Origin: an uncultured Verrucomicrobiae bacterium
GTDB taxonomy: Bacteria > Verrucomicrobiota > Verrucomicrobiia > Chthoniobacterales > JAFAMB01
Direction of reading: 5' to 3'
DNA length: 64,000 bases
Assembly (NCBI GenBank): GCA_963813025.1
Contig: CAWEXO010000014.1
Location: forward strand, 224,001 to 288,000
The translations under genes and the position numbers were made by a program. Of this stretch, positions 10,883 through 41,762 are shown one piece after another. How positions within the stretch are numbered: position 1 is the stretch's first letter; every line of letters begins with the position of its first letter. The notes under the pieces are model-generated. The model ran no database searches and was not told the DNA's origin. It was given only the letters and a program-made list of their open reading frames with translations.

Positions 10883-11245
<363 letters not shown>

Positions 11246-11303
11246 TTACATGGCGTGTTCATTGGCAATATTTCACTTAGGTTCACAGTTCCGGTGAGAA
11301 GCA

Positions 11304-27124: not shown

Positions 27125-27161
27125 AAGATCGATCTAAAGAAAAGGATTTAGATCGATCTAG
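27125..27161. promoter_or_regulatory. Two LacI-type operator palindromes
   Basis: aAGATCGATCTa (27125-27136) and TAGATCGATCTA (27149-27160), central CG, upstream of the lacI-family gene; TTGCCA at 27112. Confidence 0.75.
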
Positions 27162-27237
27162 ATCTTCCCGTTTCCCTCCTATGTGCAGATCCAAATGCTG
27201 AATTTTGCCGCGCCGAACGATCGCCGCTGTCCTACTG

Positions 27238-28299
27238 ATGAAGAAAATTCGCCCCTCCCGCGTCACCCTGCTCGACATCGCTGCCGATGCCGATGTCTCG
27301 CGTGCAACTGTTTCGCTGGTGATTCGCAATGTGTCCACGGTCGCTGAAAGTACGCGAAATCGCGTTTTAACCTCCATTAAACAGTTGGGCTATGTCTATC
27401 ATCGCGGGGCCGCTAACCTGCGGAGGCAGCAATCGCACGCGGTCGGCCTGATTGTCTCGGATATTACCAATCCATTCTTTGCCCAAGTCACTCTGGCGAT
27501 TGAAGAAAAGTTGGCCGCAGACGGCTTCGTCGCCCTGCTGGGAAACACTGCGGAAGATCTCGCCAAAGAGGAGCGCCTGCTCAAAACCATGCGCGAGTTT
27601 CCGGCTGACGGAATTCTGATCTGCCCGGCGCTTACCGAGCAGCCGACGACTCCTTTCCGGGGAAACGGAGGACTGTGTCCTACTGTTGCTTTTGCCCGGC
27701 GAACTCCGGGTCTCGATTACGCCGGAATCAATAACTGCCTCGGCGCAGAACTGGCGATCGAACACCTCTACAAAGTTGGGCATCGTCGGATCGCGTTCCT
27801 GGGAGGTAACCCAACGATCTCGACGGGCGCCGAGCGCTTGAAGGGTTATCAAAAGACGTTTCTGCGGCGGAAGCTGAAGTTCGATCCACGCTTCGTGGTC
27901 CCCTCTATTCCCAACCGCCGTGGTGGTTACGAAGGCGTCCGCCAACTGTTGCAATTGAGCAAGCCCCCGACTGCAGCACTCTGTTTCAACGATGTGGTCG
28001 CGCTCGGCGCTCTGGAAGCCATCCAGCATCTTGGACTGAAACCGGGCGTCGATTTTGGGATCGTCGGATTCAACAATATCTCCGATGCCGCGCAGAGTGT
28101 ACCCGGGTTGACCACCGTTGATACGTTTCCGCGGCGACTAGGCGAGTTGGCCGCTGAGCTACTATTGAGGCGCATTCATGAGCCTTTGCTTCCTCGCCAG
28201 GAACTGATTCTGGAACCGCGATTAGTTGTTCGGGATTCGTGCGGAGCAAGTAATCCGAGCGGAAAGAAGCCTCCATCACAGGCGAAATCAGTATCGTGA
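27238..28299 (+). CDS. LacI-family transcriptional regulator
   Basis: TLLDIAADADVSRATVS HTH, NPFF and GLTTV motifs. Confidence 0.95.
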   Translation: MKKIRPSRVTLLDIAADADVSRATVSLVIRNVSTVAESTRNRVLTSIKQLGYVYHRGAANLRRQQSHAVGLIVSDITNPFFAQVTLAIEEKLAADGFVALLGNTAEDLAKEERLLKTMREFPADGILICPALTEQPTTPFRGNGGLCPTVAFARRTPGLDYAGINNCLGAELAIEHLYKVGHRRIAFLGGNPTISTGAERLKGYQKTFLRRKLKFDPRFVVPSIPNRRGGYEGVRQLLQLSKPPTAALCFNDVVALGALEAIQHLGLKPGVDFGIVGFNNISDAAQSVPGLTTVDTFPRRLGELAAELLLRRIHEPLLPRQELILEPRLVVRDSCGASNPSGKKPPSQAKSVS

Positions 28300-28315
28300 A
28301 CACTGAGACTCTCAG

Positions 28316-29335
28316 ATGAAAAATGGTAACAAGCTCGGATGGGCGTTGATCGGCGCGAGTGACATCGCAAGAACACGGATGATCAATGCGATCAACAGCC
28401 AACCGAACAGCCGGGTTGAGGCGGTTTTCAGCAGCGATCCCGTGCGCGCCGAGACCTATGCCCGAGAGAATAACGTCCCAAAGGTATGTCCCAATCTCCC
28501 GGAAGCCCTGCACGATCCGGACATCGATGTCGTATACATCAGCACAACCAATGAACTTCACCGCTATCAGGCCGTTGCCGCAGCTCGCAGTGGAAAACAT
28601 ATCCTCTGCGAGAAACCTCTGGCGCTCTCCATGGCCGACGCGCAGCAGATGATTCGGGCGGCCCAGGAAGCGGGCGTGGTTTTTGGGACAAATCATCATC
28701 TACGGTGCTCGGTCACGCACCGAACCCTGCGAACAATGGTCAAGGGAGGTGCGATTGGCCGGCCACTAGCCGCCCGCGTGTTTCATGCAGTCTATCTTCC
28801 ACCGCGTTTGCAAGGCTGGCGAGTAAGGCGGCCAGAAGCCGGCGCAGGAGTGGTCCTCGATATAACGGTGCATGATGCGGACACGTTGCATTTTATCCTG
28901 GACTCGGACGTAGAAGACGTCAGCGCGCGTTCTGCTCATCAAGGGATGGCTCAAGGCGGGATCGAAGATGCGGTCATGGGTGTCATGCATTTGCGCGGCG
29001 GAATATTGGCGCAGTTCCACGACGCCTTTACCATTCAGCATGCTCCGACTGGTCTGCAGATTCACGGGACTGAAGGATCGCTGTTGGCAACAGATGTCAT
29101 GACCCAAGAGCCGATTGGTCGCATCATTCTGCGGAAAGGCGATCGCGAAATGGAGGTAACCCTCGACCCGCCCGAGGATTTATATGTTTTTGCGGTACGC
29201 CATTTTAACGAAGCGGTTCTGACCGGCGGAGAACCCTTCGCGACCGGTGATGATGGACTGCGTTCGCTTGCGGTGGGTCTTGCCGTGCAGGAGTCAGCTC
29301 AAACCGGTCGTCGAACCGCCGTTCACTACGCCTGA
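28316..29335 (+). CDS. afr: Gfo/Idh/MocA oxidoreductase, 1,5-anhydro-D-fructose reductase-like
   Basis: IGAS, STTNELH, CEKP, GTNHHLR, ARVFHAVYLPP.LQGWR and DITVHDAD match the Sinorhizobium Afr sequence as recalled. Confidence 0.8.
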   Translation: MKNGNKLGWALIGASDIARTRMINAINSQPNSRVEAVFSSDPVRAETYARENNVPKVCPNLPEALHDPDIDVVYISTTNELHRYQAVAAARSGKHILCEKPLALSMADAQQMIRAAQEAGVVFGTNHHLRCSVTHRTLRTMVKGGAIGRPLAARVFHAVYLPPRLQGWRVRRPEAGAGVVLDITVHDADTLHFILDSDVEDVSARSAHQGMAQGGIEDAVMGVMHLRGGILAQFHDAFTIQHAPTGLQIHGTEGSLLATDVMTQEPIGRIILRKGDREMEVTLDPPEDLYVFAVRHFNEAVLTGGEPFATGDDGLRSLAVGLAVQESAQTGRRTAVHYA

Positions 29336-29351
29336 TCAACCTCTTTTCTCA

Positions 29352-30944
29352 GTGACAAAATCCAAGATTATACCTTTGGCAAAGGTCGGTGAATTGATTC
29401 CCGATCACGCCACCCTCACGATTAGTTCGTCCAGTGGTTTAGGCTGCCCGGATGCCGCTCTGAAATCGATCGGCGATTATTTTGTGAAGGAAGGTCGGCC
29501 ACGCAGCATCACTTCGATTCACCCGATTGCGGCTGGCGACATGTATGGCATCGCCGGAATCGATCACTTGGCCCAGGCCGGTCTTTTGAAACGCGTCATC
29601 GCGGGTTCGTTTCCGAGCGGCCCTTCCTCAATGCCAAGCCCGAAGATCTGGCAAATGATTATCGGCGATCAGGTCGAGGCTTACAACGTGCCCAGCGGCA
29701 TCCTTTTCCATCTGCACCGCGAATCGGCCGCGGGTCGCCCCGGCATCCTGACAAAGGTGGGGATGGATACGTTCGTCGATCCCCGGCGGCAGGGCGCACG
29801 GATGAACGACTGTAGCACCGAAGACATCGTCCGGATCGTGAACTTCGAAGGCGACGAATGGTTATTTTTTCCCGCCATTCCCCCGAATGTCGCGATTATT
29901 CGGGCAACGACTGCCGACGAGCACGGCAACCTTACCATGGAGCACGAAGGCGCTTACCTGGGAGCGTTCGATCAGGCGCTGGCAGCACGCAACAATGGGG
30001 GTGTTGTCATTGCCCAGGTAAAAAGGTTAACGGCTTTCGGCACTTTGCGGCCTCAACAGGTTCGCGTACCGGGCGTGCTGGTGGATTACGTCGTCGTCGA
30101 TCCGGACCAGCAGCAAACGACGCAGACCGCTTACAACCCCGCAATTAGCGGTGAGATCTTCCGGCCGCTGTGGGATTTCCAACCCATTGAGTGGGGCATC
30201 GATAAAATTATTGCGAGACGGGCTGCCCTGGAGCTGAACGAGGAAGACGTCGTAAACCTCGGTTTCGGCATCTGCGCCCTGGTTCCCCGAATCCTTCTGG
30301 AAGAAGGCCTCCACGGCGAGGTTACCTGGGTGATCGAACAGGGTGCGGTTGGCGGCATGCCGCTGTTAGGTTTTGCTTTCGGTTGCGCCTCGAATGCGGA
30401 TGCAATTGTGCCCTCGACGGATCAGTTCACCTTCTTTCAAGGAGCGGGTTTTGACTCCAGTTGTCTCTCCTTCCTGCAAGTCGATCAGGAAGGCAATGTC
30501 AACGTCTCACGCCTGTCCTCACGCCCGCACGTGACGGCCGGGTGCGGCGGCTTCATCGATATCACGTCGACCGCTCGCGCAATCCTCTTCTGCGGGTATT
30601 TCACCGCGGGCGGTCTGGAACTGCGGGTGGAGGATAGCCGGCTGCGGATCATCAAGGACGGCAAAAACCGGAAATTTGTTTCGGCGGTTGAGCATGTGAC
30701 TTTCAGTGGCCGCCGAGCGCGACAACTCAACCAAAAGGTGTTATATATTACCGAACGCTGCGTCCTTCGTCTCGAGCCGGAAGGTTTGACGATCATTGAA
30801 ATCGCCCCCGGCATCGATTTAAAACGTGACGTCCTCAATCAGGCGGAAATTCCGCTTCGGGTGAGCGACACGCTCAGAACAATGGATCAGCGGATCTTTC
30901 AACCAGAGCCGTTTGGCCTGAAGCTCAACCCTAAGTTCGGCTAG
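29352..30944 (+). CDS. Family I CoA-transferase, fused alpha/beta (YdiF/Pct-like)
   Basis: VGMDTFVDPR, RATTADEHGN, NLGFG, catalytic IEQG, GNVNVS and YITERC motifs. Confidence 0.9.
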   Translation: MTKSKIIPLAKVGELIPDHATLTISSSSGLGCPDAALKSIGDYFVKEGRPRSITSIHPIAAGDMYGIAGIDHLAQAGLLKRVIAGSFPSGPSSMPSPKIWQMIIGDQVEAYNVPSGILFHLHRESAAGRPGILTKVGMDTFVDPRRQGARMNDCSTEDIVRIVNFEGDEWLFFPAIPPNVAIIRATTADEHGNLTMEHEGAYLGAFDQALAARNNGGVVIAQVKRLTAFGTLRPQQVRVPGVLVDYVVVDPDQQQTTQTAYNPAISGEIFRPLWDFQPIEWGIDKIIARRAALELNEEDVVNLGFGICALVPRILLEEGLHGEVTWVIEQGAVGGMPLLGFAFGCASNADAIVPSTDQFTFFQGAGFDSSCLSFLQVDQEGNVNVSRLSSRPHVTAGCGGFIDITSTARAILFCGYFTAGGLELRVEDSRLRIIKDGKNRKFVSAVEHVTFSGRRARQLNQKVLYITERCVLRLEPEGLTIIEIAPGIDLKRDVLNQAEIPLRVSDTLRTMDQRIFQPEPFGLKLNPKFG

Positions 30945-30947
30945 TCC

Positions 30948-33215
30948 ATGCATACGCAACCCATCGTTCAAAACGAGGTTTTTACCGTGCTTGGTCCGGC
31001 GGAAGCGGCCACGCTCGACGCCTTTTTTGAACAACTGTTTCCAGCCGATGAGAGCGGGCCTGGCGCTTCGTCCATTGGCGTCATCCATTATCTCGACCGG
31101 GCGCTGAGCGGTCCCTATTCCCACCATTTGGAAATCTATCGGCTTGCTGTCTATGCCTTGGACGCAGAATCAGAAGGCCGGTTCAGCAAGCCCTTCGTCG
31201 ATACCGATCCGAAGCAGCAGCAGGAGCTGATTACGGCTTTGGCGCAAGGCTCACTTGCGAACTTCCGAGCGGTGGATGCAAAATCCTTTTTCGAACTGGC
31301 GCGTACCCATCTTCAGGAAGGGCTTTTTTCCGATCCCGTCTATGGCGGGAATCGCCGCAAGGCAGGTTGGCGACTTTTAGGCCACCCTGGCGTCTGGCTG
31401 GAGAACAGCGCTGAGGAGAACCTCTCCGAAAAAGCGGCTGATAAAAACGGGGAGATCCAATCCCTCGCCGACCTCGATCTACCGGGTCGCAAACGAAAAT
31501 GCGTTTCCGGATATGACCCGCACCGAGGGGCGGTCGACCCGGCTCCTGAAGCCGACATCCTGCTTGTGGGAGCGGGGTCGCTGGGCTCCCTCGCCGCGTC
31601 GGTGTTTGCCAAGGCCGGTCTCAAGGTAATTGCTCTTGAGCCCGGTCCGTTTCGGACCCAAGCGGATTACGTTCCGGACGAACTGGGTTCGGCTTACTAT
31701 TGCCGCGCAAGCATGGGCCCTAAATTCTTGAATGAAGTACCCCGTTGGCGGCGTAACGAGGGCGAATCGACACAGGAGGCGACGTTCTCTCTGGGCCGGA
31801 TGATGAACAGCGTCGGAGGCTCGGTGATCCACTACGGCGCTTGGTTGCGGAGGTTTCATCCCCACCACTTCAAAATGTTGAGCCATTTTAACGAAAGGTG
31901 GGGTCTATCGCTCCTGCCGGATGGATCCACGCTCGCCGATTGGCCGATTACTTACGAGGAACTCGAGCCCTACTACACTCGTCTTGAACACGAGATTGGA
32001 ATAGCGGGTGACGAGTCCAACCCCTTTATACGGCGGAGCAAACCATTACCGATGCCGCCGATGCGCCGCTTCCGGCTCGGGGAGTTTTTTAAAGATGCGA
32101 CCAAGCGGATGGGTTTGCACGCTCACCCGGTGCCGGTGGGAGTCAACACAATTCCATACCGCGGTCGCCCAGCGACCACTTACAGCGCTTGGAGCAACGG
32201 ATTCGGTTCTCTGACCGGCGATAAATGGGACCCCTCTCTCACTTGTATCCCGGAAGCGCTCGCCACGGGCAATCTCGATCTGCGCACGCATTGCCGGGTC
32301 ATCAGCATTCATACGGATGAAACTGGGCGCGTCGACGGGGCCGAATACATCGATCCTTTGGGTCGGCGTCGCTTTCAAGGCGCGCGCATTGTGGTTTTGA
32401 GCGCGTACACGTTTGAAAACGTTCGTCTGCTTTTTCTTTCGGGCGATGCGAAACACCCCAATGGCTTGGGCAACAACCGCGGCCAGCTCGGCAAGCATTT
32501 CATGACCAAAATGTTTGCGCACGTCGATGGCTACTTTCCCGGGGTGATCTTCAACCGCCATACCGGTCCCGCCGCACAGGGCCTGGTGCTGGACGACTTT
32601 TTCGCACCCGATTTTGACTCGCTCCGACACGGTTTCATCGGTGGCGCCACGCTGGGCGCTGAACAGCAATTTTTGCCGATCCAGATCAGTCGCGAGGCAC
32701 TGCCGGCCGACGTGCCGCGCTGGGGCAAGCCCTACAAAAACCATCTGCGCCAGTGGCAACATTTCGGCGTGGTCCGCATCCAGCCGGACACATTGTCCTA
32801 CGTTAACAACTACCTTGAACTTGACCCGTCCCGCCGGGACCGCAGTGGCCTCGGTCTCCCCGTGCTTCGCATCACCTATGACCTGCGGGAAAATGAACAC
32901 CGCCTGGCGGATTGGATGGAGGCGAAGTCCGAGGAAATCCTGCGGGAGATGGGCGCGACGAAGACGTGGCGAGGCGACCGATTCACGGGAGTGGGAAGCA
33001 GCCACGATTTCGGCGGGGCGCGCATGGGCGCGGATCCCGCAAAGAGCGTCGTCGATCCGGAACTTCGGGTGCATGACACTCCGGGGCTGTATATCTATAG
33101 CGGCGCTGCTTTTCCTTCTTGTCCAGGAATCAATCCCACCCTCAGCTTGCTCGCACTTATCTACCGCGCCGCGGAAAGGCTTGTCCAACGAATCGCCAAC
33201 GGAGAAGAGCGATGA
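30948..33215 (+). CDS. Fusion of gluconate-2-dehydrogenase subunit-3-like domain and GMC flavoprotein
   Basis: N-terminal GPGA and EGLFSDPVYGGN; then VGAGSLG, VGGSVIHY, WPITYEELEPYY, H.FGGARMG and NPTL. Confidence 0.88.
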   Translation: MHTQPIVQNEVFTVLGPAEAATLDAFFEQLFPADESGPGASSIGVIHYLDRALSGPYSHHLEIYRLAVYALDAESEGRFSKPFVDTDPKQQQELITALAQGSLANFRAVDAKSFFELARTHLQEGLFSDPVYGGNRRKAGWRLLGHPGVWLENSAEENLSEKAADKNGEIQSLADLDLPGRKRKCVSGYDPHRGAVDPAPEADILLVGAGSLGSLAASVFAKAGLKVIALEPGPFRTQADYVPDELGSAYYCRASMGPKFLNEVPRWRRNEGESTQEATFSLGRMMNSVGGSVIHYGAWLRRFHPHHFKMLSHFNERWGLSLLPDGSTLADWPITYEELEPYYTRLEHEIGIAGDESNPFIRRSKPLPMPPMRRFRLGEFFKDATKRMGLHAHPVPVGVNTIPYRGRPATTYSAWSNGFGSLTGDKWDPSLTCIPEALATGNLDLRTHCRVISIHTDETGRVDGAEYIDPLGRRRFQGARIVVLSAYTFENVRLLFLSGDAKHPNGLGNNRGQLGKHFMTKMFAHVDGYFPGVIFNRHTGPAAQGLVLDDFFAPDFDSLRHGFIGGATLGAEQQFLPIQISREALPADVPRWGKPYKNHLRQWQHFGVVRIQPDTLSYVNNYLELDPSRRDRSGLGLPVLRITYDLRENEHRLADWMEAKSEEILREMGATKTWRGDRFTGVGSSHDFGGARMGADPAKSVVDPELRVHDTPGLYIYSGAAFPSCPGINPTLSLLALIYRAAERLVQRIANGEER

Positions 33216-33982
33216 ATCAGTCGACCAAGGTTGAGTTTGAAATTCAGGGGTCGATCGCGCGCATCGTGTTAAATCGGCCTGAGAAACTCAATGCGCTGGA
33301 TCCGGAGATGCTGTCCGCTTTAGAGGCGGCCGTCGATCAGGCCGAGCAATCGCGCGAAGTTCGAGCCATCATCCTGGCTGCCGCCGGAGAAAAGTCGTTC
33401 TGTGTCGGGGCCGATATTCTTGCCTGGACGTCGCTTTCGCCGCTCGCCATGTGGTCGGAGTGGGTGCGTCGGGGCCATCGGATTTTCGATCGGCTGGAGC
33501 ATGCGCGTCAGCCGGTCATCTGCGCGATCCAAGGTTACGCTTTGGGCGGGGGCCTGGAAATAGCCCTCGCTTGTGACGTGAGAATCGCGGTCGATGCAGC
33601 TCGATTCGCGATGCCCGAAGTCAAGCTTGGCACGATTCCAGGTTGGGGTGGCACGAACCGTTTGCCAAAATTGATCGGCAGCAGTCGAGCGAAACAGATG
33701 ATCTTCACCGGTGAGCAAATTCCCGCCGATGTCGCCGAACGGTGGGGCTTGGTAAACGAGGTAGTGCCGGCGGGCTCGCTGAGCGATCGAGTCAATGAAC
33801 TTGCCCGAAAAATCGCCGGTAACGCCCCGGTTGCAGTCCAGACAGCCAAACAGCTGATCGCGACTCCTTCCGCAGCGACGCTCGAATCTCTGGCCTCCGC
33901 AGTGAACGCTTTCAGCAATGACGCTAAAGAAGGGCTGGCCGCCTTCCGCGAGAAACGGCTTCCCAAATTTGAAGGGCACTGA
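33212..33982 (+). CDS. Enoyl-CoA hydratase/isomerase (crotonase)
   Basis: LNRPEKLNAL, GGGLE and PEVKLG motifs; ATGA overlap with the upstream gene. Confidence 0.92.
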   Translation: MNQSTKVEFEIQGSIARIVLNRPEKLNALDPEMLSALEAAVDQAEQSREVRAIILAAAGEKSFCVGADILAWTSLSPLAMWSEWVRRGHRIFDRLEHARQPVICAIQGYALGGGLEIALACDVRIAVDAARFAMPEVKLGTIPGWGGTNRLPKLIGSSRAKQMIFTGEQIPADVAERWGLVNEVVPAGSLSDRVNELARKIAGNAPVAVQTAKQLIATPSAATLESLASAVNAFSNDAKEGLAAFREKRLPKFEGH

Positions 33983-33985
33983 ACT

Positions 33986-35485: not shown

Positions 35486-35599
35486 CGTGGAGGAGCCTCA
35501 ACCGAATCAGTTCTTGGTCTCCGGAGGCGTTAACGAAAACAGGCCGGCATCGGCCCCTCCCGGGATCCTCGAGAAAAGAGCCCAAACATTGTAGCACCA

Positions 35600-36757
35600 A
35601 TGACCCAATCATTTTCCGAACGGGCTCAATCAGCGACCGCGTTTGCCGGGAAACAACTGAGCCGTTTGATCACTGAGCATCCGGATTACTTTCCGCTATA
35701 CACCCAGCACGGAAAATGGAAACACGAATCAGAAGCCTGGACCAATTGGTGCGAAGGGTTTCTGGGCGGAATGTTGTGGATCCTCTTTCGGCACACGGCA
35801 AACCCTTCGTGGCGGGAACGAGCCGAGCATTATTCGCAACTGATCGAATCCCGAAAAAACGATCGAAACGTACATGATCTGGGGTTCCTTTTTCTGCCCA
35901 CCTGGAAGGTCTGGTATGAGTTGACGGGTGATCCAGCCAAGAACCAGGTTGTCATCGACGCCGGCAGAACTTTGGCCCTCCGCTTCCAGCCTAACGGCCG
36001 TTATCTGCGATCCTTTGTGGCCCCGGAAAGTCTGTTCATCGACATTATGATGAATGTGGGGATAATTTTCTACGCCGCCCAACAGACCAACGATTCGAAA
36101 TTGCAGCGAATCGCCCTCGATCATTGCCTGACGACTCGCCGTTTTCTCGTCCGGGGGGACGGCAGCACGGCTCACGAAGGCCTGTTTGATCCCAAGACCG
36201 GCGAGTTCATCAGACAAAAAACTCACCAAGGATGGCGGAATGACTCGAGTTGGGCGCGCGGTCAGGCTTGGGCTTTATCCGGTTTCACGAGGGCCTATCA
36301 GTTCACTCAAGATGAGCGTTTCCTCCGGACTGCAGAGCACTGTGCAGAATTCTATCTTGAGCGTACGCGACCGCAGGGGGTGCCACCGAACGACTGGGAA
36401 GAGCCTCAACCGCGGCAACCCTACGAAAGCTCGGCCGCGGCTATCGCCGCCGCGGGACTGCTCGACCTGGCGGAAGCCGTTAGCGAATCCTCAAAAGCTG
36501 ATCATTATCGAGAGCACGCTTTCGTGATCCTCGACACGCTGCTCAGCCCGGAGTTCCTGGCCAATGAAACACCCGGTTGGGAAGGCATCCTCAAACATGG
36601 AATTTATCATCAAGGCAATGGTCTCGGCGTCGATGAAAGTGTTATGTGGGGCGAGTATTTCTTTCTCGCCGCACTGGATAAGGCGCTTGCCACTGTTGAA
36701 TTGCGCGCGTCTTCTACCTCAAAACGGTTCCCCAATCCAACCCCAAAACAAAAATGA
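35600..36757 (+). CDS. GH88 unsaturated glucuronyl hydrolase-like protein
   Basis: W.EGF.GG, HDLGF, IDIMMN, THQG, WARGQAW and WGEYF motifs. Confidence 0.88.
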   Translation: MTQSFSERAQSATAFAGKQLSRLITEHPDYFPLYTQHGKWKHESEAWTNWCEGFLGGMLWILFRHTANPSWRERAEHYSQLIESRKNDRNVHDLGFLFLPTWKVWYELTGDPAKNQVVIDAGRTLALRFQPNGRYLRSFVAPESLFIDIMMNVGIIFYAAQQTNDSKLQRIALDHCLTTRRFLVRGDGSTAHEGLFDPKTGEFIRQKTHQGWRNDSSWARGQAWALSGFTRAYQFTQDERFLRTAEHCAEFYLERTRPQGVPPNDWEEPQPRQPYESSAAAIAAAGLLDLAEAVSESSKADHYREHAFVILDTLLSPEFLANETPGWEGILKHGIYHQGNGLGVDESVMWGEYFFLAALDKALATVELRASSTSKRFPNPTPKQK

Positions 36758-38034
36758 AAAACAAAATAAGAAAACGCATCTGTTTCCCCTTCGTTGGGCT
36801 CGCGCTCTTGCTCGCAGCCCAGATTCCGACCGCTTTGTTTGCGGCGGACAAAAAATTGGAAGTCTTCTCCTGGTGGACGTCAGGCGGCGAAGCAGCCGCA
36901 CTCGACAGTTTGTTTCAGGCTGTAAAAAAGGCGGACCCCGGAATTCAGATTATCAATGCGACCGTCGCGGGCGGCGGGGGGTCGGCCGCGCGACCTGTCC
37001 TCCAGGCGCGCTTAGCCGGCGGTAATCCTCCCGATAGCTGGCAAACGCATCCAGGTTGGGAGCTGCTTGGCCAATATGTCGCGGCTAACTACTGCGAGCC
37101 TATCACCGACCTCTATAAGAGCGAAGGTTGGGACAAGGTCGTTCCAAAAGGTCTGATTGATATGCTGAGCAAGGATGGCGAGACCTATGCAGTTCTAGTC
37201 GGCGTCCACCGCGGCAACGTTCTCTGGTACAACAAGAAAGTGCTCGAGAAGAATGGAATCAAGGTCGGCGACAAGATGACATTCGACGAATTCTTTGCTG
37301 CTGCCGAAAAATTGAAAGCGGCCGGAGTGACGCCGTTGGCGGTGGGCGATTCCGGAATCTGGGCCACTGCTCAACTCTTTGAAAACACCTTGTTGGGCAC
37401 CGTGGGACCGCAAGGCTGGACTGACCTTTTCAGCGGGAAGATGGCTTGGGACGACCCAAAGGTTAAGCAGGCGGCCGAGAAGTACGGGAAAATGCTCGCC
37501 TACCAAAATTCAGATCACTCGGCCCTGACGTGGGACCAGGCGGTGAAAGCGGTAATGGAAGGTAGGTGCGCGTTTACGTCAATGGGCGACTGGACCTATG
37601 GCGAGTTTGCCAAAGCTAAAATGAAGGACAAGGAGGACTTCGGGTGGGTCAGTCATCCCGGTACAGACGGTGCGTTTATTATCGTTGCCGACGGCTTTCC
37701 ATTGGCCAAAGGCGCGCCTCACAGAGAAGCGGCGACTACTTGGCTGAAAGTCTGTGGCAGCAAGGATGCGCAGGAGGCGTTTAATCCGTTAAAAGGCTCG
37801 ATTCCTCCGCGGACCGACGTGGACAAGAGCAAGTTTGGTCCTTATCACAACTGGTCAATGGAGTCCTTTGCAAAGGATGCGTTGGTGCCCAGTTGCGTGC
37901 ACGGCGAGGCTGCTCCGGCTGCATTCCAGCAGGCCCTTAACGATGCGATCACGACGTTTGTCGTGGATAAGAATGCCGACCGACTCACGCAGGCCTTGGC
38001 GCAGGCCGCTAAGGAGTCTGAGATGAGCAAATGA
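36754..38034 (+). CDS. Carbohydrate ABC transporter substrate-binding protein (CUT1, glucose-binding-like)
   Basis: Signal peptide; SWWTSGGEAAAL, HRGN, MGDW and KGSIP motifs. Confidence 0.92.
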   Translation: MKNKIRKRICFPFVGLALLLAAQIPTALFAADKKLEVFSWWTSGGEAAALDSLFQAVKKADPGIQIINATVAGGGGSAARPVLQARLAGGNPPDSWQTHPGWELLGQYVAANYCEPITDLYKSEGWDKVVPKGLIDMLSKDGETYAVLVGVHRGNVLWYNKKVLEKNGIKVGDKMTFDEFFAAAEKLKAAGVTPLAVGDSGIWATAQLFENTLLGTVGPQGWTDLFSGKMAWDDPKVKQAAEKYGKMLAYQNSDHSALTWDQAVKAVMEGRCAFTSMGDWTYGEFAKAKMKDKEDFGWVSHPGTDGAFIIVADGFPLAKGAPHREAATTWLKVCGSKDAQEAFNPLKGSIPPRTDVDKSKFGPYHNWSMESFAKDALVPSCVHGEAAPAAFQQALNDAITTFVVDKNADRLTQALAQAAKESEMSK

Positions 38035-38264
38035 AAAAGGAGTAAGTACCGGATTCTCCAAAAAACAGGATTGGAACATGCCCTGAATCGCCGAAGAAGG
38101 TCTTTTTAGAGGATCTTCTCAGCCTCTCGAATGGGCAGCAGAACTCAGCGCGTGGTTCAACCCCGGGAAAGCTTATCGGAGCTTGTCCCTGTCGAACTCT
38201 GATCGCTTATCGACAGGGACCGGCTCCTGCCGGTCCGCCCGTTTTCAAAGAAAAGCTGGACGCC

Positions 38265-39344
38265 ATGAATGTAAAAATCCCTGCTGGGATCTCAGCCGGT
38301 GGGCCCGCAACGCAAGCCGACCCGATTGGCCAGGCACTGGCGCCGAAGACCGCAACTCGCCGGCGCCGGGTGCGACTGGATGATCTGCTTCCTCCCTTGA
38401 TCCTCACCCCGGCGATGATCGCGAGCATCGTCTTTGTCTATGTATTCATTGCGATCACCATCTGGGTCTCATTATCAAAATGGGGCACTTTGCGGATGGA
38501 CCTTAATTTGCGCGAACCATTCGGGTTCACTTACCAGCAGATGTTTTCGATGCCTCGCTGGCACGCCAACCTTCGCAACGTTTTCGTTTTTACGATTCTT
38601 TTTCTGACGAGCTCGATCAGTTTTGGGTTGCTTTTGGCGATGCTCCTGGACCGCAAGCTGCTGGGGCACACCATCCTGCGAAACGTTTTTTTATTTCCTT
38701 ACGCGCTGTCCTTCATTGTTACCGGCATCGTTTGGCGATGGATCTTCAACCCGGAAACAGGGATCAACCTGTTGTTTGATGGCTTGGGCATCAATCATCT
38801 GATCACATCGATGGGCGGCCCTCCTCTCAGGCCCGGCTGGACGACCGATCCTTCGGTCCTCTTTTCGCTCAATGACTGGCTCGGGCACATTTTCCCGGCT
38901 GTGAAAGGTATGTCGATCCAGTTAGGAATCCCGGTTGCCTTAATTCCTGTAGTGATCGCCGCGGCCTGGCAGTTAACCGGTTTTTCTATGGCGATGTACA
39001 TCGCCGGTATGGCGACGATATCCCACGAGTTGCGCGAAGCCGCTCGGATCGACGGAGCGAGCGAATTCCAAGTTTATACCAACGTAATCCTACCCTTGCT
39101 CTGGCCGGTTACCGTCAGCACCGCGATTATCCTGGGACATGTGTCCCTGAAAATCTTCGATCTGATCTTCGCGATGACCGGTGTCGGACCGGGGTTTGCC
39201 ACGGATGTCCCCGGCATCTTCGTTTTTGATCAGACCTTTAAAGCGACGAGATATAATCTCGGGGCGGCGGCATCGGTTGTGATGCTTGTTCTGGTCTGCC
39301 TGATCATCGTGCCCTATCTCTGGGCTAATTTCCGCAAGAGGTAA
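38265..39344 (+). CDS. Carbohydrate ABC permease
   Basis: EAARIDGA motif; multi-TM. Confidence 0.93.
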   Translation: MNVKIPAGISAGGPATQADPIGQALAPKTATRRRRVRLDDLLPPLILTPAMIASIVFVYVFIAITIWVSLSKWGTLRMDLNLREPFGFTYQQMFSMPRWHANLRNVFVFTILFLTSSISFGLLLAMLLDRKLLGHTILRNVFLFPYALSFIVTGIVWRWIFNPETGINLLFDGLGINHLITSMGGPPLRPGWTTDPSVLFSLNDWLGHIFPAVKGMSIQLGIPVALIPVVIAAAWQLTGFSMAMYIAGMATISHELREAARIDGASEFQVYTNVILPLLWPVTVSTAIILGHVSLKIFDLIFAMTGVGPGFATDVPGIFVFDQTFKATRYNLGAAASVVMLVLVCLIIVPYLWANFRKR

Positions 39345-39346
39345 AT

Positions 39347-40210
39347 ATGACAAAGACACCCTCAATTTTTTACCCCTTTCGGCAGGCCCTGCCGCGGAAC
39401 CTCTGGGATTACCTTATTCTCGCAGTGTTATTGGGATGCATGTTGTTCTTCTTGATGCCGGTTTATGTGATGGTCGTAACCGGGCTGAAAGAGGCGCGCA
39501 ATGTCAGCCTCTCGACGATGTGGAATTTACCGCGCCAGTTCACTGGCGGCGGATTTGTCGAGGCCTGGCATCGTTTGGAGCCGAACCTTGGTAATAGTCT
39601 TATGCTGACTATTCCAGCCACCGTTATCTCGGCGATCTGGGGATCCATTAATGGTTATGTCTTTTCCAAATGGAAGTTCCGCGGTTCAAACCTTCTTTTC
39701 GCAATGTTGGTCTTTGGCATGTTTATTCCCTATCAGAGTATCCTGATTCCACTGATTCAGTTTCTCCAGCATATCAAACTCTACGGGACGATTTGGGGCT
39801 TGGTGACCGTTCACGTCCTCTACGGACTCCCAATTACCAGTCTGATTTTTCGAAATTATTTTGCTAGCATTCCGGATGAATTGATGGACGCGTCGCGTAT
39901 CGACGGTGCGGGCATTGTGCGAACTTTTATCCACGTCCTGCTTCCTCTTTCGATGCCTGCTTTTGTGGTGGTCGCGATTTTCCAGTTCACCAATATTTGG
40001 AACGATTTTTTGTTTGGCGTGACGATTCTGCCAAATCCCAGTGCTCAACCCGTGACTGTGGCCTTGAATAATCTGTCAGGCTCATTTTCGGTCGATTGGA
40101 ATGTGGTGATGGCGGGAGCAGTCATCGCCGCACTGCCGACTGCGCTGGTTTACATCTTCCTAGGCCGATTTTTTATCAAAGGACTCTTGGCCGGTTCGGT
40201 AAAAGGTTAG
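39347..40210 (+). CDS. Carbohydrate ABC permease
   Basis: DASRIDGA and WNDFL motifs. Confidence 0.93.
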   Translation: MTKTPSIFYPFRQALPRNLWDYLILAVLLGCMLFFLMPVYVMVVTGLKEARNVSLSTMWNLPRQFTGGGFVEAWHRLEPNLGNSLMLTIPATVISAIWGSINGYVFSKWKFRGSNLLFAMLVFGMFIPYQSILIPLIQFLQHIKLYGTIWGLVTVHVLYGLPITSLIFRNYFASIPDELMDASRIDGAGIVRTFIHVLLPLSMPAFVVVAIFQFTNIWNDFLFGVTILPNPSAQPVTVALNNLSGSFSVDWNVVMAGAVIAALPTALVYIFLGRFFIKGLLAGSVKG

Positions 40211-40223
40211 TGAACGTGTTGTC

Positions 40224-41762
40224 ATGGAGGCCTATGATTTGGTAATTATCGGCACCGGCATGGGCGGCGGGACGTTGGCCTACGCCCTCCGCGATTCGGG
40301 TAGGAAAATCTTGCTGCTGGAGCGAGGCGATTATCTTCCTTCCGAATCAGAGAACTGGAGTCCGGAGGCGGTTTTCGATCGGAAAAGGTACAAACCCAAA
40401 GAGCAATGGTTCGACCATACTGGGCATCCTTTTTCTCCGGGGGTTCATTACTTCGTCGGTGGCAACACGAAGGTTTACGGGGCGGCTCTGCCGCGGTTTC
40501 GCCAAGAGGATTTCTCAAGCCTGGAACATGAAGAAGGTGTGTCGCCTGGTTGGCCAGTAACCTACGAAGATTTTGAGCCTTACTATTGCCGTGCTGAAAA
40601 GATGCTCTTTGTTCATGGTGAAACCGGTTCCGACCCGACAGACCCACCGCGCTCAGCGTCGTTCCCGTTTCCTGCAGTTCCGGACGAACCTTATATCAAG
40701 GATTTGCGAACGCGGTTAGAAGGGCAGGGGCTGCACCCGTTTTCCTTGCCGCTTGGGATCGATCTGCGATCGGGCGGAACGTGCATTCGCTGCAAGACAT
40801 GTGACGGTTTTCCCTGTAAAGTGTTCGCCAAAGCAGATGCCGACATCTGCTGCGTCCGACCGGCCGTTGCCTCGGAGAAGATCGAACTGCTTACGCGAGC
40901 TTTTGCTCGCCGCCTCATCACTGACGCTTCCGGCGAAAAAGTGACCGAAGTCGAGATCGAGCGCGATGGAGAAGTCCGACGGATCGGCGCCGATACTTTT
41001 GTTGTCTCGTGCGGCGCGGTGAACTCTGTCGCACTCCTGTTGCGTTCGGCATCTGCTCACCATCCAAATGGACTAGCAAATTCGTCTGGATTGGTGGGTC
41101 GAAACTACATGGTTCATAACAACACCGCCCTGATGGCAATCCATCCCTTTCGGATAAATCGTACGACGTTTCAAAAGACGATGGCAGTCAATGATTTCTA
41201 TTTTCGGGGTGAAACGGGTTACCGATATCCTTTAGGTAATCTGCAGCTTCTTGGAAAGCTGCAAGCAGGGATGCTGACAGCCGACCAAAGATGGGTGCCA
41301 AAGCCGATCCTCCGTGCCTTGGCCAATCGTAGCGTGGACTGGTGGGTCATGTCCGAAGACCTGCCTGACCCGGAAAACCGAGTGACTCTGGGACAGGGCG
41401 GCCGGATCGAAGTTCATTTCCGTCCCCATAATCTGGGGGCCCACACCCGGTTAATTAAAGCCGCTACGCGAATGTTAAAAAAGGCAGGCTATCCGATCGT
41501 GTGGATTCAGCGCATGGGCATTGAGACCAATTCCCATCAGTGCGGTACGATGAGGTTCGGGACTGATCCGAAAAGCTCTGTGCTTAATCTTTTCTGTCGG
41601 AGCCACGATGTTACCAACCTGTTTGTGGTTGATAGTTCGTTTTTTCCCTCCTCAGCCGCGGTTAACCCGGCCCTTACCATTGCCGCCCAGGCGCTGCGCG
41701 TTGCTGACCACATAGAAGGTTCTCTGGCAACAAATCCAGCGATTGAAAGCAGTGGAACGTGA
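40224..41762 (+). CDS. GMC-family oxidoreductase
   Basis: IGTGMGG, VGGNTKVYG, C..C..CDGFPC, HQCGT and NPALT motifs. Confidence 0.92.
   Translation: MEAYDLVIIGTGMGGGTLAYALRDSGRKILLLERGDYLPSESENWSPEAVFDRKRYKPKEQWFDHTGHPFSPGVHYFVGGNTKVYGAALPRFRQEDFSSLEHEEGVSPGWPVTYEDFEPYYCRAEKMLFVHGETGSDPTDPPRSASFPFPAVPDEPYIKDLRTRLEGQGLHPFSLPLGIDLRSGGTCIRCKTCDGFPCKVFAKADADICCVRPAVASEKIELLTRAFARRLITDASGEKVTEVEIERDGEVRRIGADTFVVSCGAVNSVALLLRSASAHHPNGLANSSGLVGRNYMVHNNTALMAIHPFRINRTTFQKTMAVNDFYFRGETGYRYPLGNLQLLGKLQAGMLTADQRWVPKPILRALANRSVDWWVMSEDLPDPENRVTLGQGGRIEVHFRPHNLGAHTRLIKAATRMLKKAGYPIVWIQRMGIETNSHQCGTMRFGTDPKSSVLNLFCRSHDVTNLFVVDSSFFPSSAAVNPALTIAAQALRVADHIEGSLATNPAIESSGT

Follow-up and report, generated by a model that had tools for sequence, protein, structure and literature searches.

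As summarized in excerpts of a 2025 review (PMC12441222), the one aerobic route published so far (Kuhn, Yu and Giffhorn 2006, as cited there) converts 1,5-anhydromannitol to mannose by hydroxylation at C-1. The first enzyme of this S. morelense pathway is 1,5-anhydro-D-fructose reductase (AFR), and the subsequent hydroxylation is ascribed in the same excerpts to a still unidentified, P450-like enzyme. The excerpts also cover an anaerobic glycyl-radical route (YbiW/PflD) for 1,5-anhydroglucitol-6-phosphate, in which the C1-O5 ether problem is met by oxygen-sensitive radical chemistry on PTS-phosphorylated substrates. The locus described here shares a full-length AFR orthologue with the S. morelense pathway, and the annotated AFR gene of S. 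meliloti heads the same kind of operon; with the radical route it would share substrates and the ether problem. In contrast to both, the conserved neighbors of AFR are a CoA-transferase, a crotonase, an aldehyde dehydrogenase (ALDH) and flavoenzymes, and neither an oxygenase nor glycyl-radical genes are present in the operon. A shuttle of CoA-transferase and hydratase is established for the conversion of acrylate to 3-hydroxypropionate by AcuN and AcuK (excerpts of PMC3338564 and PMC13104084). The Halomonas AcuN-AcuK/DddA-DddC system, which continues to malonate semialdehyde, groups the same four classes of enzyme in a single transcription unit and recycles CoA during hydration/dehydration, a likeness that holds at the level of enzyme class (PMC3338564, PMC13104084). 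The module described here, however, is part of a LacI-controlled sugar regulon that also includes AFR, a glucose-type ABC importer and GH88, and its ALDH is of the sugar-aldehyde and not of the CoA-acylating type.

Three further systems resemble parts of the locus. In Bacillus sp. GL1, a polysaccharide lyase and an unsaturated glucuronyl hydrolase (UGL; PDB 1vd5) work through a 4,5-unsaturated enol-ether carboxylate, the kind of intermediate also proposed here. The GH88 protein of the locus is homologous over its full length and keeps the catalytic Asp pair and the -1 subsite; however, the window contains no lyase, and the double bond would be introduced by an intracellular crotonase acting on a CoA thioester. 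Because the proposed substrate is a 1-deoxy monosaccharide, hydration would open the ring instead of releasing an aglycone as in UGL. CaiB and CaiD, a CoA-transferase and a crotonase, convert carnitine to crotonobetaine via CoA esters. There, too, a beta-hydroxy acid is dehydrated as its CoA ester and the CoA is handed on, but CaiB is a class III transferase, the enzyme of the locus belongs to family I, and the substrate class differs. The Gluconobacter L-sorbose and L-sorbosone dehydrogenases oxidize an alcohol group of a sugar to the aldehyde and then to the acid; among characterized enzymes the ALDH of the locus is nearest to this type (PDB 7w5l) and likewise has FAD dehydrogenases of the acetic-acid-bacteria type as partners. 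Unlike the Gluconobacter enzymes, those of the locus lack a signal peptide and a cytochrome subunit, have a fused small subunit and are presumably cytoplasmic; their product would go into CoA chemistry instead of being excreted.

The window, the whole stretch of 64,000 nucleotides analyzed here, belongs to a Chthoniobacterales-like verrucomicrobium, a soil bacterium. According to the ORF list and Pfam domains, positions 27238 to 41762 hold 11 genes, all on the plus strand and mostly tightly coupled, with intergenic spacing of -4 to 16 bases except for gaps of 114 bases upstream of the GH88 gene and 230 bases upstream of the first permease gene. The first gene encodes a LacI-family repressor (27238..28299; Pfam LacI and Peripla_BP_3), for which no NCBIfam equivalog was found at or above cutoff; its ORF opens at TTG 27205, and the ATG at 27238 is the likely start. 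A sequence search located twin LacI-type operators (27126..27160) about 80 bases upstream of lacI, consisting of two 100% identical, palindromic copies of AGATCGATCTA at 27126-27136 and 27150-27160, 24 bases apart from start to start. In the 64-kb window, the operator 10-mer has 2 exact copies, both at this site, and 7 matches with at most one mismatch versus 2.5 expected; a count of 7 was reached in 0 of 100 shuffles. Scans for sigma-70 promoters and terminators performed no better than on shuffled sequence. The original prediction of 11 co-oriented genes behind twin LacI operators was confirmed by the ORFs, domains and operator search, and the domains it had listed for all operon genes matched the Pfam and NCBIfam calls. 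Its statement that kinase, aldolase, IlvD/enolase-type dehydratase and ABC ATPase genes are missing also agreed with Pfam for positions 27125 to 41762. A GH1 beta-glucosidase gene (Pfam) is convergent to the operon; among nine relatives, no GH1 gene adjoining the cluster was found.

The second gene (28316..29335) encodes a Gfo/Idh/MocA protein aligned over its full length (residues 9 to 334) with AFR structures (PDB 2glx, E = 1.7e-113; 4koa, E = 8.9e-112). The segments LCEKPLA and DITVHDAD are kept in 56 to 58 of 58 orthologues. By sequence, the reductase is a true AFR orthologue, so that its earlier description as Afr-like was an understatement. AFR was not found with the window's query in one relative (G004, 95% complete) that has the cluster, which counts against the anhydro-sugar explanation proposed below.

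The AFR gene is followed by that of a fused family I CoA-transferase (29349..30944; Pfam CoA_trans, YdiF/FadX-like), which starts with GTG just past the preceding stop codon and matches PDB 2ahu (YdiF) with E = 3.5e-113. The crotonase gene (33212..33982; Pfam ECH_1, E = 8e-60) overlaps the preceding stop codon (ATGA); the best solved relative of its product is a 3-hydroxypropionyl-CoA dehydratase (PDB 5zai, E = 4e-65), and its PDB matches also include carnitinyl-CoA dehydratases. The residues that we take to be catalytic, noted as intact in the original prediction, proved to be invariant: the Glu of the CoA-transferase EQG motif is kept in 90/90 aligned sequences and both crotonase Glu residues in 80/80. 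In E. coli B2-type strains, a CoA-transferase with 62% identity and a crotonase are accompanied by genes for an MFS transporter and an FAD oxidoreductase, without sugar genes, indicating that the pair is not tied to anhydro sugars.

Three genes encode putative oxidizing enzymes. The NAD(P) ALDH (33986..35485) matches PDB 3u4j (E = 3.3e-169) and 7w5l (E = 5.2e-160), the latter an L-sorbosone dehydrogenase, a sugar-aldehyde enzyme and the nearest characterized relative. The presumably catalytic Glu of ELGGKN and Cys of GECC are kept in 52/52 sequences. With 287 bits for TIGR01722 and 480 bits for the best NCBIfam model, the ALDH is not of the CoA-acylating methylmalonate-semialdehyde type. A fusion of a Gluconate_2-dh3 small subunit with a GMC flavoprotein (30948..33215; Pfam) matches the large subunits of fructose dehydrogenase and FAD-glucose dehydrogenase in the PDB (E = 5.5e-37 and 1.6e-34); no twin-arginine signal is visible at its N terminus, so the enzyme is presumably cytoplasmic. 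Loci without this fusion have a GMC protein of the choline-dehydrogenase/alcohol-oxidase type instead, a type that oxidizes primary alcohols. The last gene of the operon (40224..41762) encodes a second GMC-type FAD dehydrogenase (GMC2) of the FAD-glucose dehydrogenase/fructose dehydrogenase large-subunit type (PDB 6a2u, E = 2e-40; 7w2j, E = 6.4e-38). Of 49 orthologues, only 16 share its C-x2-C-x2-C-x4-C motif.

The GH88 protein (35600..36757) aligns with Bacillus UGL (PDB 1vd5, E = 1.7e-53) over residues 22 to 360. Equivalents of UGL D149, H193, Q211, W219, R221, W225, Y338 and H339 are kept in 28/28 GH88 sequences and that of D88 in 27/28, with one alignment gap, which indicates an intact UGL-type active site including both catalytic and -1 subsite residues. 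The position of UGL W134 differs, being Phe in 28/28. The importer genes encode a CUT1 solute-binding protein (SBP; 36754..38034) with a signal-peptide-like N terminus and two ABC permeases (38265..39344 and 39347..40210; Pfam BPD_transp_1). Among the SBP matches, glucose-binding proteins rank first (PDB 2b3b, E = 2.4e-96), and the best NCBIfam matches, all below cutoff, are GlcS for the SBP, GlcT for permease 1 and GlcU for permease 2. The SBP is thus of the glucose-binding, monosaccharide type, which makes an anhydro monosaccharide a likelier substrate than a glycoside; of the two imports originally predicted, glycoside or anhydrosugar, the second is favored.

The cluster recurs in nine relatives at 55 to 85% identity, and its core (LacI, AFR-type reductase, CoA-transferase, crotonase, ALDH, sugar ABC importer and GMC) extends to Chloroflexota, Rhodothermales, Burkholderiales and many Rhizobiales. 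Among 89 CoA-transferase loci, comprising the nine relatives and the best 80 of 587 confirmed relatives, the partners were crotonase in 80, AFR-type reductase in 57, ALDH in 51, GMC2 in 48, a GH88-like gene in 27 and the Gdh3::GMC fusion in 22. Chance does not account for the grouping of these genes. The neighborhood search bore out their expected joint conservation, both inside the family and between phyla. The rhizobial grouping named in the original prediction was found as well: the S. meliloti cluster runs LacI, 1,5-anhydro-D-fructose reductase, CoA-transferase, enoyl-CoA hydratase, ALDH, ABC importer and GMC, with a glycerate kinase nearby. In the relatives, the operator 10-mer lies directly upstream of the operon. 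Genus g4 has the operon in two parts, LacI-CoA-transferase-GMC2-Gdh3::GMC-crotonase-ALDH-GH88 and AFR-SBP-permease-permease, with AGATCGATCT upstream of each; the two halves are therefore probably coregulated, which counts for the anhydro-sugar explanation.

GH88 lies outside the conserved core. GH88-like genes occur beside the CoA-transferase and crotonase in Verrucomicrobiota, Chloroflexota, Spirochaetes and Devosia, and minimal loci of GH88, CoA-transferase, crotonase and transporter, without AFR, ALDH or GMC, were found in Chloroflexota (L030, L096) and Spirochaetes (L042). None of the seven Burkholderiales loci has GH88, and it is also missing from 34 of the 36 loci of Alphaproteobacteria; the remaining two, from Devosia, have a GH88-like gene at 26 to 28% identity. 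In the loci that lack it, DUF993 and SDR genes often take its place. Ring opening in most proteobacterial loci is thus not explained by a GH88 step. In a reverse test, 9 of 301 Chloroflexota genomes had a GH88 homologue (E <= 1e-40). A CoA-transferase or crotonase was nearby in only three of the nine loci fetched; the other six had no such neighbor, two of them being cut by contig ends, and one genome has its CoA-transferase gene at a distance of 1.4 Mb from GH88. Seen from this side, the coupling of GH88 with the CoA enzymes is weak, which counts against the anhydro-sugar explanation.

The operon probably serves an anhydro sugar degraded via the CoA ester of a sugar acid. That it is LacI repressed and imports and degrades a glucose-sized 1,5-anhydro sugar, namely 1,5-anhydro-D-fructose, 1,5-anhydroglucitol and/or 1,5-anhydromannitol, seems possible, short of probable; we infer this substrate and each chemical step from gene content, conservation, the shared operator, AFR orthology, the UGL-type site and the SBP type. 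The sugar would enter through the glucose-type SBP and two permeases, with a shared ATPase encoded elsewhere. GMC2 and AFR would interconvert the C2 forms from 1,5-anhydroglucitol via 1,5-anhydrofructose to 1,5-anhydromannitol, the last reduction being the known reaction of AFR. The Gdh3::GMC fusion may oxidize the C6 alcohol to the aldehyde (the assignment of the two GMC proteins is not readable from sequence) and the sorbosone-dehydrogenase-like ALDH the aldehyde to a 1,5-anhydro-uronic acid. The CoA-transferase would convert this acid to its CoA thioester, thereby acidifying H-5, and the crotonase would remove the C4 hydroxyl by beta-hydroxyacyl-CoA dehydration across C4-C5, giving a 4,5-unsaturated enol ether. 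As happens in the shuttles of AcuN/AcuK and CaiB/CaiD, the CoA would then be transferred to a further molecule of the acid. Vinyl-ether hydration is the normal chemistry of GH88, and here it would yield a hemiketal that opens and breaks the ether ring. Ring opening by GH88 is more likely than by the crotonase, which would carry out only the dehydration. From 1,5-anhydro-D-mannitol the product would be 2-keto-3-deoxy-D-gluconate (KDG) for a kdgK-eda route; only the manno isomer, the AFR product, should yield the D-erythro compound KDG. In the host genome (80% complete), a gene for a PfkB kinase and one for a KDPG aldolase form an overlapping pair, which counts for this downstream route. UGL-type enzymes bind a free carboxylate and a glycoside, which counts against a 1-deoxy (anhydro) enol ether as substrate. 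The specific sequence of C6 acid, 4,5-elimination and GH88 ring opening is put forward only tentatively. If true, ring-locked anhydro sugars would be degraded by an undescribed route of oxidation to the acid, CoA activation, water loss and ring opening. The literature search found no paper describing an anhydro-sugar CoA pathway, consistent with the expectation that no homologous cluster had been characterized. The original interpretation is thus supported in part: conservation, the rhizobial grouping and the lack of a prior description hold, and the sequence from sugar to acid, CoA ester and dehydration still has the standing of a proposal.

Other explanations were weighed against this one. 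The CoA-transferase, crotonase, flavoenzyme and ALDH might form an AcuN/AcuK/DddA/DddC-like module for a small C3-C4 acid (acrylate, 3-hydroxypropionate or glycerate-like) released from the sugar, which itself would never be CoA activated. The co-transcribed Halomonas genes dddC-dddA-acuN-acuK (ALDH, alcohol dehydrogenase, CoA-transferase and hydratase; excerpts of PMC13104084 and PMC3338564), the best solved crotonase relative, the S. meliloti glycerate kinase and the E. coli variant all fit such a module. It is nevertheless unlikely, as the ALDH scores are not those of the CoA-acylating type and its nearest characterized relative is L-sorbosone dehydrogenase, GH88 would be left without a role although it is a recurrent neighbor of the CoA-transferase and crotonase pair, and by Pfam no operon enzyme would split a hexose skeleton into C3 units. 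Alternatively, a glucoside or mannoside might be oxidized to a glucuronide intracellularly and undergo elimination as the CoA ester, with GH88 freeing the aglycone, a lyase-free cleavage of a resistant glycosidic bond; or the CoA enzymes might act on an acid aglycone. The chemistry would be as in the anhydro-sugar explanation with GH88 in its native glycoside-cleaving role, and the minimal loci and the convergent GH1 gene point the same way. The monosaccharide-type SBP, the absence of the GH1 gene beside the cluster in the nine relatives, and AFR, whose known substrate is no glycoside and which stays with the transporter when the operon splits, make this quite unlikely.

Very unlikely is the use of unsaturated uronides, in which oligosaccharides cut by lyases outside the cell would be imported, GH88 would free the unsaturated uronate, and ALDH, GMC, CoA-transferase and crotonase would form a new 4-deoxy-5-keto-uronate route replacing KduI/KduD. 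The intact full-length UGL homologue favors it, KduI was not found in the 80% complete host genome, and the ALDH could oxidize the C1 aldehyde of the freed keto-uronate. Yet the SBP is nearest to glucose-binding proteins and not to oligosaccharide binders, no polysaccharide lyase or sulfatase was found by Pfam among the window's ORFs, AFR belongs to the same regulon, the proteobacterial core cluster largely lacks GH88 (Devosia excepted), and an alpha-keto acid would be a poor substrate for the CoA-transferase and crotonase. Finally, only AFR and the transporter might serve anhydro sugars, by the published route, with the other genes an unrelated catabolic module sharing the operon. The S. morelense pathway, in which AFR is followed by C-1 hydroxylation to mannose, needs no CoA enzyme, as far as the excerpts of PMC12441222 go, which also counts against the anhydro-sugar CoA explanation, and genus g4 has AFR and the transporter as a separate unit. 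Such a division is highly improbable: no P450 or other oxygenase was found in the operon by Pfam, the hydroxylase is still unidentified in those excerpts, the operator is common to both g4 units, and AFR and CoA-transferase are adjacent in 57 of the 89 loci, across several phyla.

The operon spans positions 27238 to 41762 and comprises 11 genes on the + strand, as defined from ORFs and from Pfam and NCBIfam matches. These encode a LacI regulator, a Gfo/Idh/MocA oxidoreductase, a fused family I CoA-transferase, a Gluconate_2-dh3::GMC fusion (Gdh3::GMC), a crotonase, an aldehyde dehydrogenase (ALDH), a GH88 protein, a CUT1 solute-binding protein (SBP), two permeases, and a second GMC-type flavoprotein (GMC2). 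The intergenic gaps are mostly 16 bases or shorter, or are replaced by 4-base overlaps (ATGA at 33212 and 36754). The palindromic word AGATCGATCTA occurs twice 5' of lacI, at 27126 and 27150, and the only exact copies of the operator 10-mer AGATCGATCT in the 64-kb window are the two 5' of this gene. A convergent GH1 gene (Pfam) lies 5 bases past the end of the operon. No kinase, aldolase, IlvD/enolase-type dehydratase or ABC ATPase was detected within the operon by Pfam, and promoter and terminator scans of the operon performed no better than shuffles. Every item that the original prediction had listed for the operon was borne out by the ORFs, the Pfam and NCBIfam matches, and the operator word. 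The source genome (4.4 Mb, 16 contigs, 80% complete) has MAGs labelled Verrucomicrobiae or Chthoniobacterales as its nearest named relatives.

Several genes in the upstream surroundings lie on the - strand. A DDE_3 transposase gene (21093 to 22157) is located 5 kb upstream of the operon, and a glycosyltransferase gene (25602 to 26294), which lies some 800 bases before the operators, matches TIGR04283 (arsenosugar biosynthesis glycosyltransferase) with 222 bits against a cut-off of 182. An ammonium transporter gene (PF00909) beside a P-II gene (10883 to 11221) is split into two ORFs (11218 to 11844 and 11874 to 12623). The split could be due to a frameshift, to disruption of the gene or to misassembly.

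A match to the CoA-transferase was present in 23 of the 41 related genomes and in 18 of the 24 of the same family. Twelve CoA-transferase places were fetched, and nine of them carried the cluster at 55 to 85% protein identity. The gene order of the window was kept in six of these nine relatives; the other three had no reductase, and GMC2 was relocated beside the CoA-transferase. At the remaining three places, the CoA-transferase stood alone at 38 to 42% identity, with none of the operon's other genes. A profile of the nine CoA-transferase orthologues was run against species-representative genomes and yielded 587 confirmed relatives. The best 80 of the 587, which were taken, belonged to Chthoniobacterales, Chloroflexota, Rhodothermales, a Bacteroidetes MAG, Spirochaetes, Burkholderiales and many Rhizobiales (Sinorhizobium, Rhizobium, Mesorhizobium, Aminobacter, Phyllobacterium, Devosia, Shinella and former Ochrobactrum species).

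Together with the nine relatives, these gave 89 CoA-transferase loci, among which one contig is counted twice and another probably likewise (contig number, length and matches agree). With tblastn (E <= 1e-15, coverage of at least 50%), the crotonase was detected at 80 of the 89 loci, LacI at 58, the reductase of the 1,5-anhydro-D-fructose reductase (AFR) type at 57 (at least 45% identity), ALDH at 51 (at least 50% identity), GMC2 at 48, the SBP at 40, a GH88-like protein at 27, and the Gdh3::GMC fusion at 22. Four of the nine loci without a crotonase match stop less than 1.5 kb past the CoA-transferase; the other five, all Chloroflexota, have sequence there and no match. These counts indicate that the CoA-transferase and crotonase are the invariant pair. 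The usual core consists of this pair with LacI, AFR, ALDH, a sugar ABC importer and GMC2, and GH88 and the Gdh3::GMC fusion characterise the verrucomicrobial and some chloroflexal versions. The genes are therefore conserved together, as predicted: the cluster is present in nine relatives, and the core also in loci of Chloroflexota, Rhodothermales, Burkholderiales and Rhizobiales. The cluster is common in bacteria that live in soil or in association with plants, among them Rhizobiales, Burkholderiales, Chloroflexota and Verrucomicrobiota.

In a PDB search, the reductase matched both solved AFRs from end to end of their chains (2glx, E 1.7e-113, query residues 9 to 334 against chain residues 3 to 326; 4koa, E 8.9e-112), and the third-best solved relative was far weaker (E 2.5e-34), indicating that it is, as judged by its sequence, a full-length AFR orthologue. 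The Lys/Asp/His segment, which we take to be catalytic, and the GAS-x-IA dinucleotide motif are present, and the EKP and DITVHDAD segments align with 2glx without a difference. The EKP Lys is conserved in 57 of the 58 AFR orthologues, and none of the 58 lacks the Asp and His of DITVHDAD. The predicted reaction is the NADPH-dependent conversion of 1,5-anhydrofructose to 1,5-anhydromannitol. A second AFR-like gene lies outside the window, at 9906 to 10897 of contig CAWEXO010000014.1; it is read as two pieces, with identities of 58% and 44%, has an internal TGA and is probably a pseudogene.

The best match of the SBP was the Thermus 'glucose-binding protein' (2b3b, E 2.4e-96), followed by other sugar-binding components; entry 5dvf is presumably a Pseudomonas glucose binder. 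The best NCBIfam matches of the SBP and permeases were GlcS/T/U of a glucose system, all under cut-off. Since the SBP is nearest to glucose-binding proteins in both comparisons, its ligand should be about hexose-sized. The nearest characterised solved relative of the ALDH is L-sorbosone dehydrogenase (7w5l, E 5.2e-160), and the same holds for the ALDH of the Sinorhizobium meliloti operon. The solved S. meliloti ALDH 3u4j was ruled out as the ALDH of the S. meliloti operon, the two being clearly non-identical residue by residue.

Both flavoproteins resemble the large subunits of FAD glucose dehydrogenase and fructose dehydrogenase. These two enzymes and gluconate 2-dehydrogenase are membrane-bound complexes in which the small subunit is a protein of its own, exported by the Tat system, and which include a cytochrome c subunit. 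In the operon, by contrast, the Gdh3 small subunit forms the N-terminal part of the flavoprotein, the first 40 residues of the fusion contain no twin-arginine motif, and no cytochrome gene was found by Pfam. Because both flavoproteins are without a signal peptide and the one small subunit is fused, both should be cytoplasmic. In clusters without the fusion (Rhodothermales and Proteobacteria), its place is taken by a GMC of the choline-dehydrogenase/alcohol-oxidase type, which oxidises primary alcohols; this GMC is present in 29 loci. GMC2 contains a C-x2-C-x2-C-x4-C motif (residues 187 to 198; window 40782 to 40817) that is kept in 16 of 49 orthologues and elsewhere replaced by L/A/W/N, mostly in Proteobacteria. 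The motif could represent a metal-binding or Fe-S site restricted to certain lineages.

The CoA-transferase is YdiF-like (2ahu, E 3.5e-113, residues 14 to 524 aligned), with fused alpha and beta halves, and its EQG catalytic Glu (E330) is kept in all 90 aligned sequences. Its best NCBIfam match, FadX, reached 373 bits, under the cut-off of 750. The crotonase (Pfam ECH_1, E 8e-60) is an ordinary two-Glu hydratase/dehydratase whose best solved relative is a 3-hydroxypropionyl-CoA dehydratase. E116 and E136, kept in 80 of 80 sequences, are presumably the two catalytic Glu of the GGG-x-E and P-E motifs.

The GH88 protein aligned with the unsaturated glucuronyl hydrolase (UGL) of Bacillus (1vd5, E 1.7e-53) over residues 22 to 360 of 385; the Pfam GH88 model covers only residues 42 to 235 (E 2e-13). 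An alignment was made of 28 sequences, comprising the window's GH88 and 27 GH88-like proteins adjoining a CoA-transferase, some of which (Spirochaetes and Devosia) are merely 26 to 29% identical to it. The equivalent of UGL D88 (D93), a position fixed by the D88N entry 2ahf among the structure matches, is kept in 27 of the 28, with one alignment gap, and that of D149 (D148) in all 28. H192, Q210, W218, R220, W224, Y336 and H337, corresponding to UGL H193, Q211, W219, R221, W225, Y338 and H339, are also kept in every sequence, and the UGL W134 position is Phe throughout. From the UGL literature, we take D88 and D149 to be the catalytic Asp pair and the other kept residues to form the -1 subsite.

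The sole reaction of GH88 enzymes is hydration of the vinyl ether at C4=C5 of 4,5-unsaturated uronates. If a crotonase acted on a uronyl-CoA, with the thioester at C6, a hydrogen at C5 and a hydroxyl at C4, it would give exactly this C4=C5 bond, which ties GH88 to the CoA pair. We propose that the substrate of the window's GH88 is a non-glycoside enol ether, instead of 4,5-unsaturated glucuronyl glycosides. Minimal loci contain little else: in one Chloroflexota locus, with a second one similar, GH88 and LacI are divergent from CoA-transferase, crotonase, SBP and two permease genes, and in a Spirochaetes locus the genes for CoA-transferase, crotonase and two MFS proteins come directly after a GH88-like gene. 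The reverse test, which set out from GH88 genes of Chloroflexota, was weaker and bore out the association only in part. A GH88 homologue (E <= 1e-40) was present in 9 genomes of an even sample of 301. Nine further GH88 loci were fetched, of which three had a CoA-transferase and/or crotonase nearby and six did not; two of the six are cut by a contig end, and in one of the six a 60% identical CoA-transferase lies 1.4 Mb away.

1,5-Anhydroglucitol and 1,5-anhydrofructose are widespread derivatives of glucose and starch. A 1,5-anhydro sugar is unable to open its ring because it has no anomeric hydroxyl. In the proposed pathway, 1,5-anhydrofructose, 1,5-anhydroglucitol or 1,5-anhydromannitol would be imported and the pool converted by GMC2 and AFR to 1,5-anhydro-D-mannitol, the known AFR product. 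The second flavoenzyme and ALDH would oxidise C6 to the acid, in parallel to the route from sorbose via sorbosone to 2-ketogulonate. The CoA-transferase would then make the thioester of the anhydro-uronic acid, the crotonase would eliminate the 4-OH, and the CoA would be passed to the next acid molecule. Finally, GH88 would add water at C5, and the resulting hemiketal would open. According to Fischer projections, the manno isomer would yield 3-deoxy-D-erythro-hex-2-ulosonate (2-keto-3-deoxygluconate, KDG) and the gluco isomer the L-threo isomer. That only the manno isomer gives KDG would explain why the pathway starts with a manno-forming enzyme. A PfkB-kinase/KDPG-aldolase pair is encoded by overlapping genes 70 kb upstream in the genome. 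The complete scheme, in which a CoA thioester replaces the polysaccharide lyase, the crotonase carries out the C4-C5 beta-elimination on anhydro-uronyl-CoA, and GH88 serves as a ring-opening hydratase that gives KDG directly, is put forward tentatively, and we hold it to be somewhat more doubtful than probable.

The distribution of the operator bears on the role of AFR. AGATCGATCT was matched in 20 of 131 examined loci, several of the 20 being places fetched twice. It lies directly 5' of the cluster in most verrucomicrobial relatives, and also 5' of the reductase in two Rhodothermales loci and of the CoA-transferase in one Burkholderiaceae locus. In two genomes of a related genus, the operon is divided between two separate places, a catabolic half (LacI, CoA-transferase, GMC2, Gdh3::GMC, crotonase, ALDH and GH88) and another half with AFR, SBP and two permeases. 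Both halves have the operator word in front, indicating that AFR is in one regulon with the CoA enzymes and moves with the importer. This fits an AFR acting on the imported sugar. In one compared genome (95% complete), no AFR was found with the window's AFR as query.

Part of the evidence counts against the anhydro-sugar proposal. Adjacent CoA-transferase and hydratase genes are common to the operon (crotonase in 80/89 loci) and the AcuN/AcuK acrylate module. The dddC-dddA-acuN-acuK unit, which according to the accessible parts of two papers acts on acrylate and 3-hydroxypropionate (PMC3338564, PMC13104084), has the same four enzyme classes as the operon. Evidence against the proposal also comes from Escherichia coli, in which 827 of 5426 complete genomes (e.g., ATCC 25922 and ABU 83972) have a CoA-transferase/crotonase locus between dnaB and qorA. 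The locus comprises genes for a CoA-transferase (62% identical), crotonase, MFS transporter and 682-amino-acid FAD oxidoreductase, with LacI divergent from them, and the pair has no sugar genes around it. The proposed CoA mechanism in particular is also opposed by the published aerobic route from 1,5-anhydromannitol to mannose (Kuhn et al. 2006, as summarised in the accessible part of PMC12441222).

Other routes agree less well with the gene content. The features of a lyase-dependent uronide locus, namely a polysaccharide lyase, KduI/KduD-type genes and an oligosaccharide binder, were not recovered: Pfam detected no polysaccharide lyase among the window's ORFs, KduI was not found in the 80% complete genome, and the SBP is of the glucose-binding type, in contrast to the oligosaccharide binder of such loci. 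A route by glycoside 3-dehydrogenase and beta-eliminase was ruled out, as Pfam detected no xylose-isomerase-like lyase in the operon. A hydroxycinnamate-type CoA route (ligase, hydratase-lyase and vanillin dehydrogenase) was rejected on two grounds: the crotonase matches short-chain hydratases of the ordinary kind, and the ALDH belongs to the sugar-aldehyde type.

The enzyme families are all known; their combination is not. A literature search, with subscription journals largely outside its coverage, found no paper linking the operon's enzymes to anhydro sugars or GH88, none on glucuronyl-CoA (including spelling variants), and, among the papers listed, none on UGL together with a CoA-transferase and enoyl-CoA hydratase, none combining anhydroglucitol or anhydrofructose with a CoA-transferase or enoyl-CoA hydratase, and none relevant to anhydrofructose and afr in S. 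meliloti. No paper describing the pathway in a homologous cluster was found, so the prediction stands in this respect as well. In its accessible part, a 2025 review calls the enzyme following AFR 'still unidentified' and states that an oxidative 1,5-anhydroglucitol pathway has not been described (PMC12441222). The new elements are the GH88-bearing variant, the proposal of 4,5-elimination and ring opening with its KDG stereochemistry, the glucose-type SBP, and the split regulon with a shared operator. Genes for aerobic anhydro-sugar breakdown past AFR have been lacking since the route was described in 2006, and the operon is a complete candidate gene set for it. The chemical idea, that a cyclic ether is broken by CoA-activated elimination and subsequent hydration of the vinyl ether, is new for sugars. 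If true, it would provide the missing aerobic pathway for 1,5-anhydrofructose, 1,5-anhydromannitol and 1,5-anhydroglucitol, the first sugar-ring acyl-CoA intermediate of carbohydrate catabolism, a non-glycosidase role for GH88, and broader roles for family I CoA-transferase/crotonase pairs. The subject bears on neutropenia in GSD Ib and G6PC3 deficiency.

The afr/CoA-transferase/crotonase/ALDH grouping that the original prediction named for rhizobia is present in S. meliloti, where the annotated order is a divergent DUF993 gene, LacI, AFR, CoA-transferase, enoyl-CoA hydratase, ALDH, SBP, two permeases, ATPase, GMC, SDR, classical GMC and glycerate kinase. The divergent gene is annotated as dihydrodipicolinate synthase family and was identified as DUF993. 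GH88 is missing from 34 of 36 alphaproteobacterial loci, the exceptions being two Devosia loci with a GH88-like gene at 26 to 28% identity, and from all 7 Burkholderiales loci. This absence counts against the proposed scheme: ring opening in these bacteria must therefore differ or be spontaneous. The core in Alphaproteobacteria and Burkholderiales is joined by DUF993 (27 loci), SDR (26 loci) and at times glycerate kinase, with DUF993 (PF06187) divergent from LacI. GH88 and DUF993 are mutually exclusive, with zero co-occurrence among the 89 loci, and may be alternative solutions to a single step. No paper on DUF993 or PF06187 was found in the literature search.

A paralogous cluster on S. meliloti pSymA contains a CoA-transferase, crotonase and glycerate kinase and, farther along, an acyl-CoA dehydrogenase, SDR, dihydrodipicolinate synthase family protein, sugar-phosphate isomerase-like TIM barrel and ETF. 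The dihydrodipicolinate synthase family label is an annotation, borne also by the DUF993 gene of the S. meliloti operon. This cluster suggests a broader set of sugar-acid CoA pathways in rhizobia.
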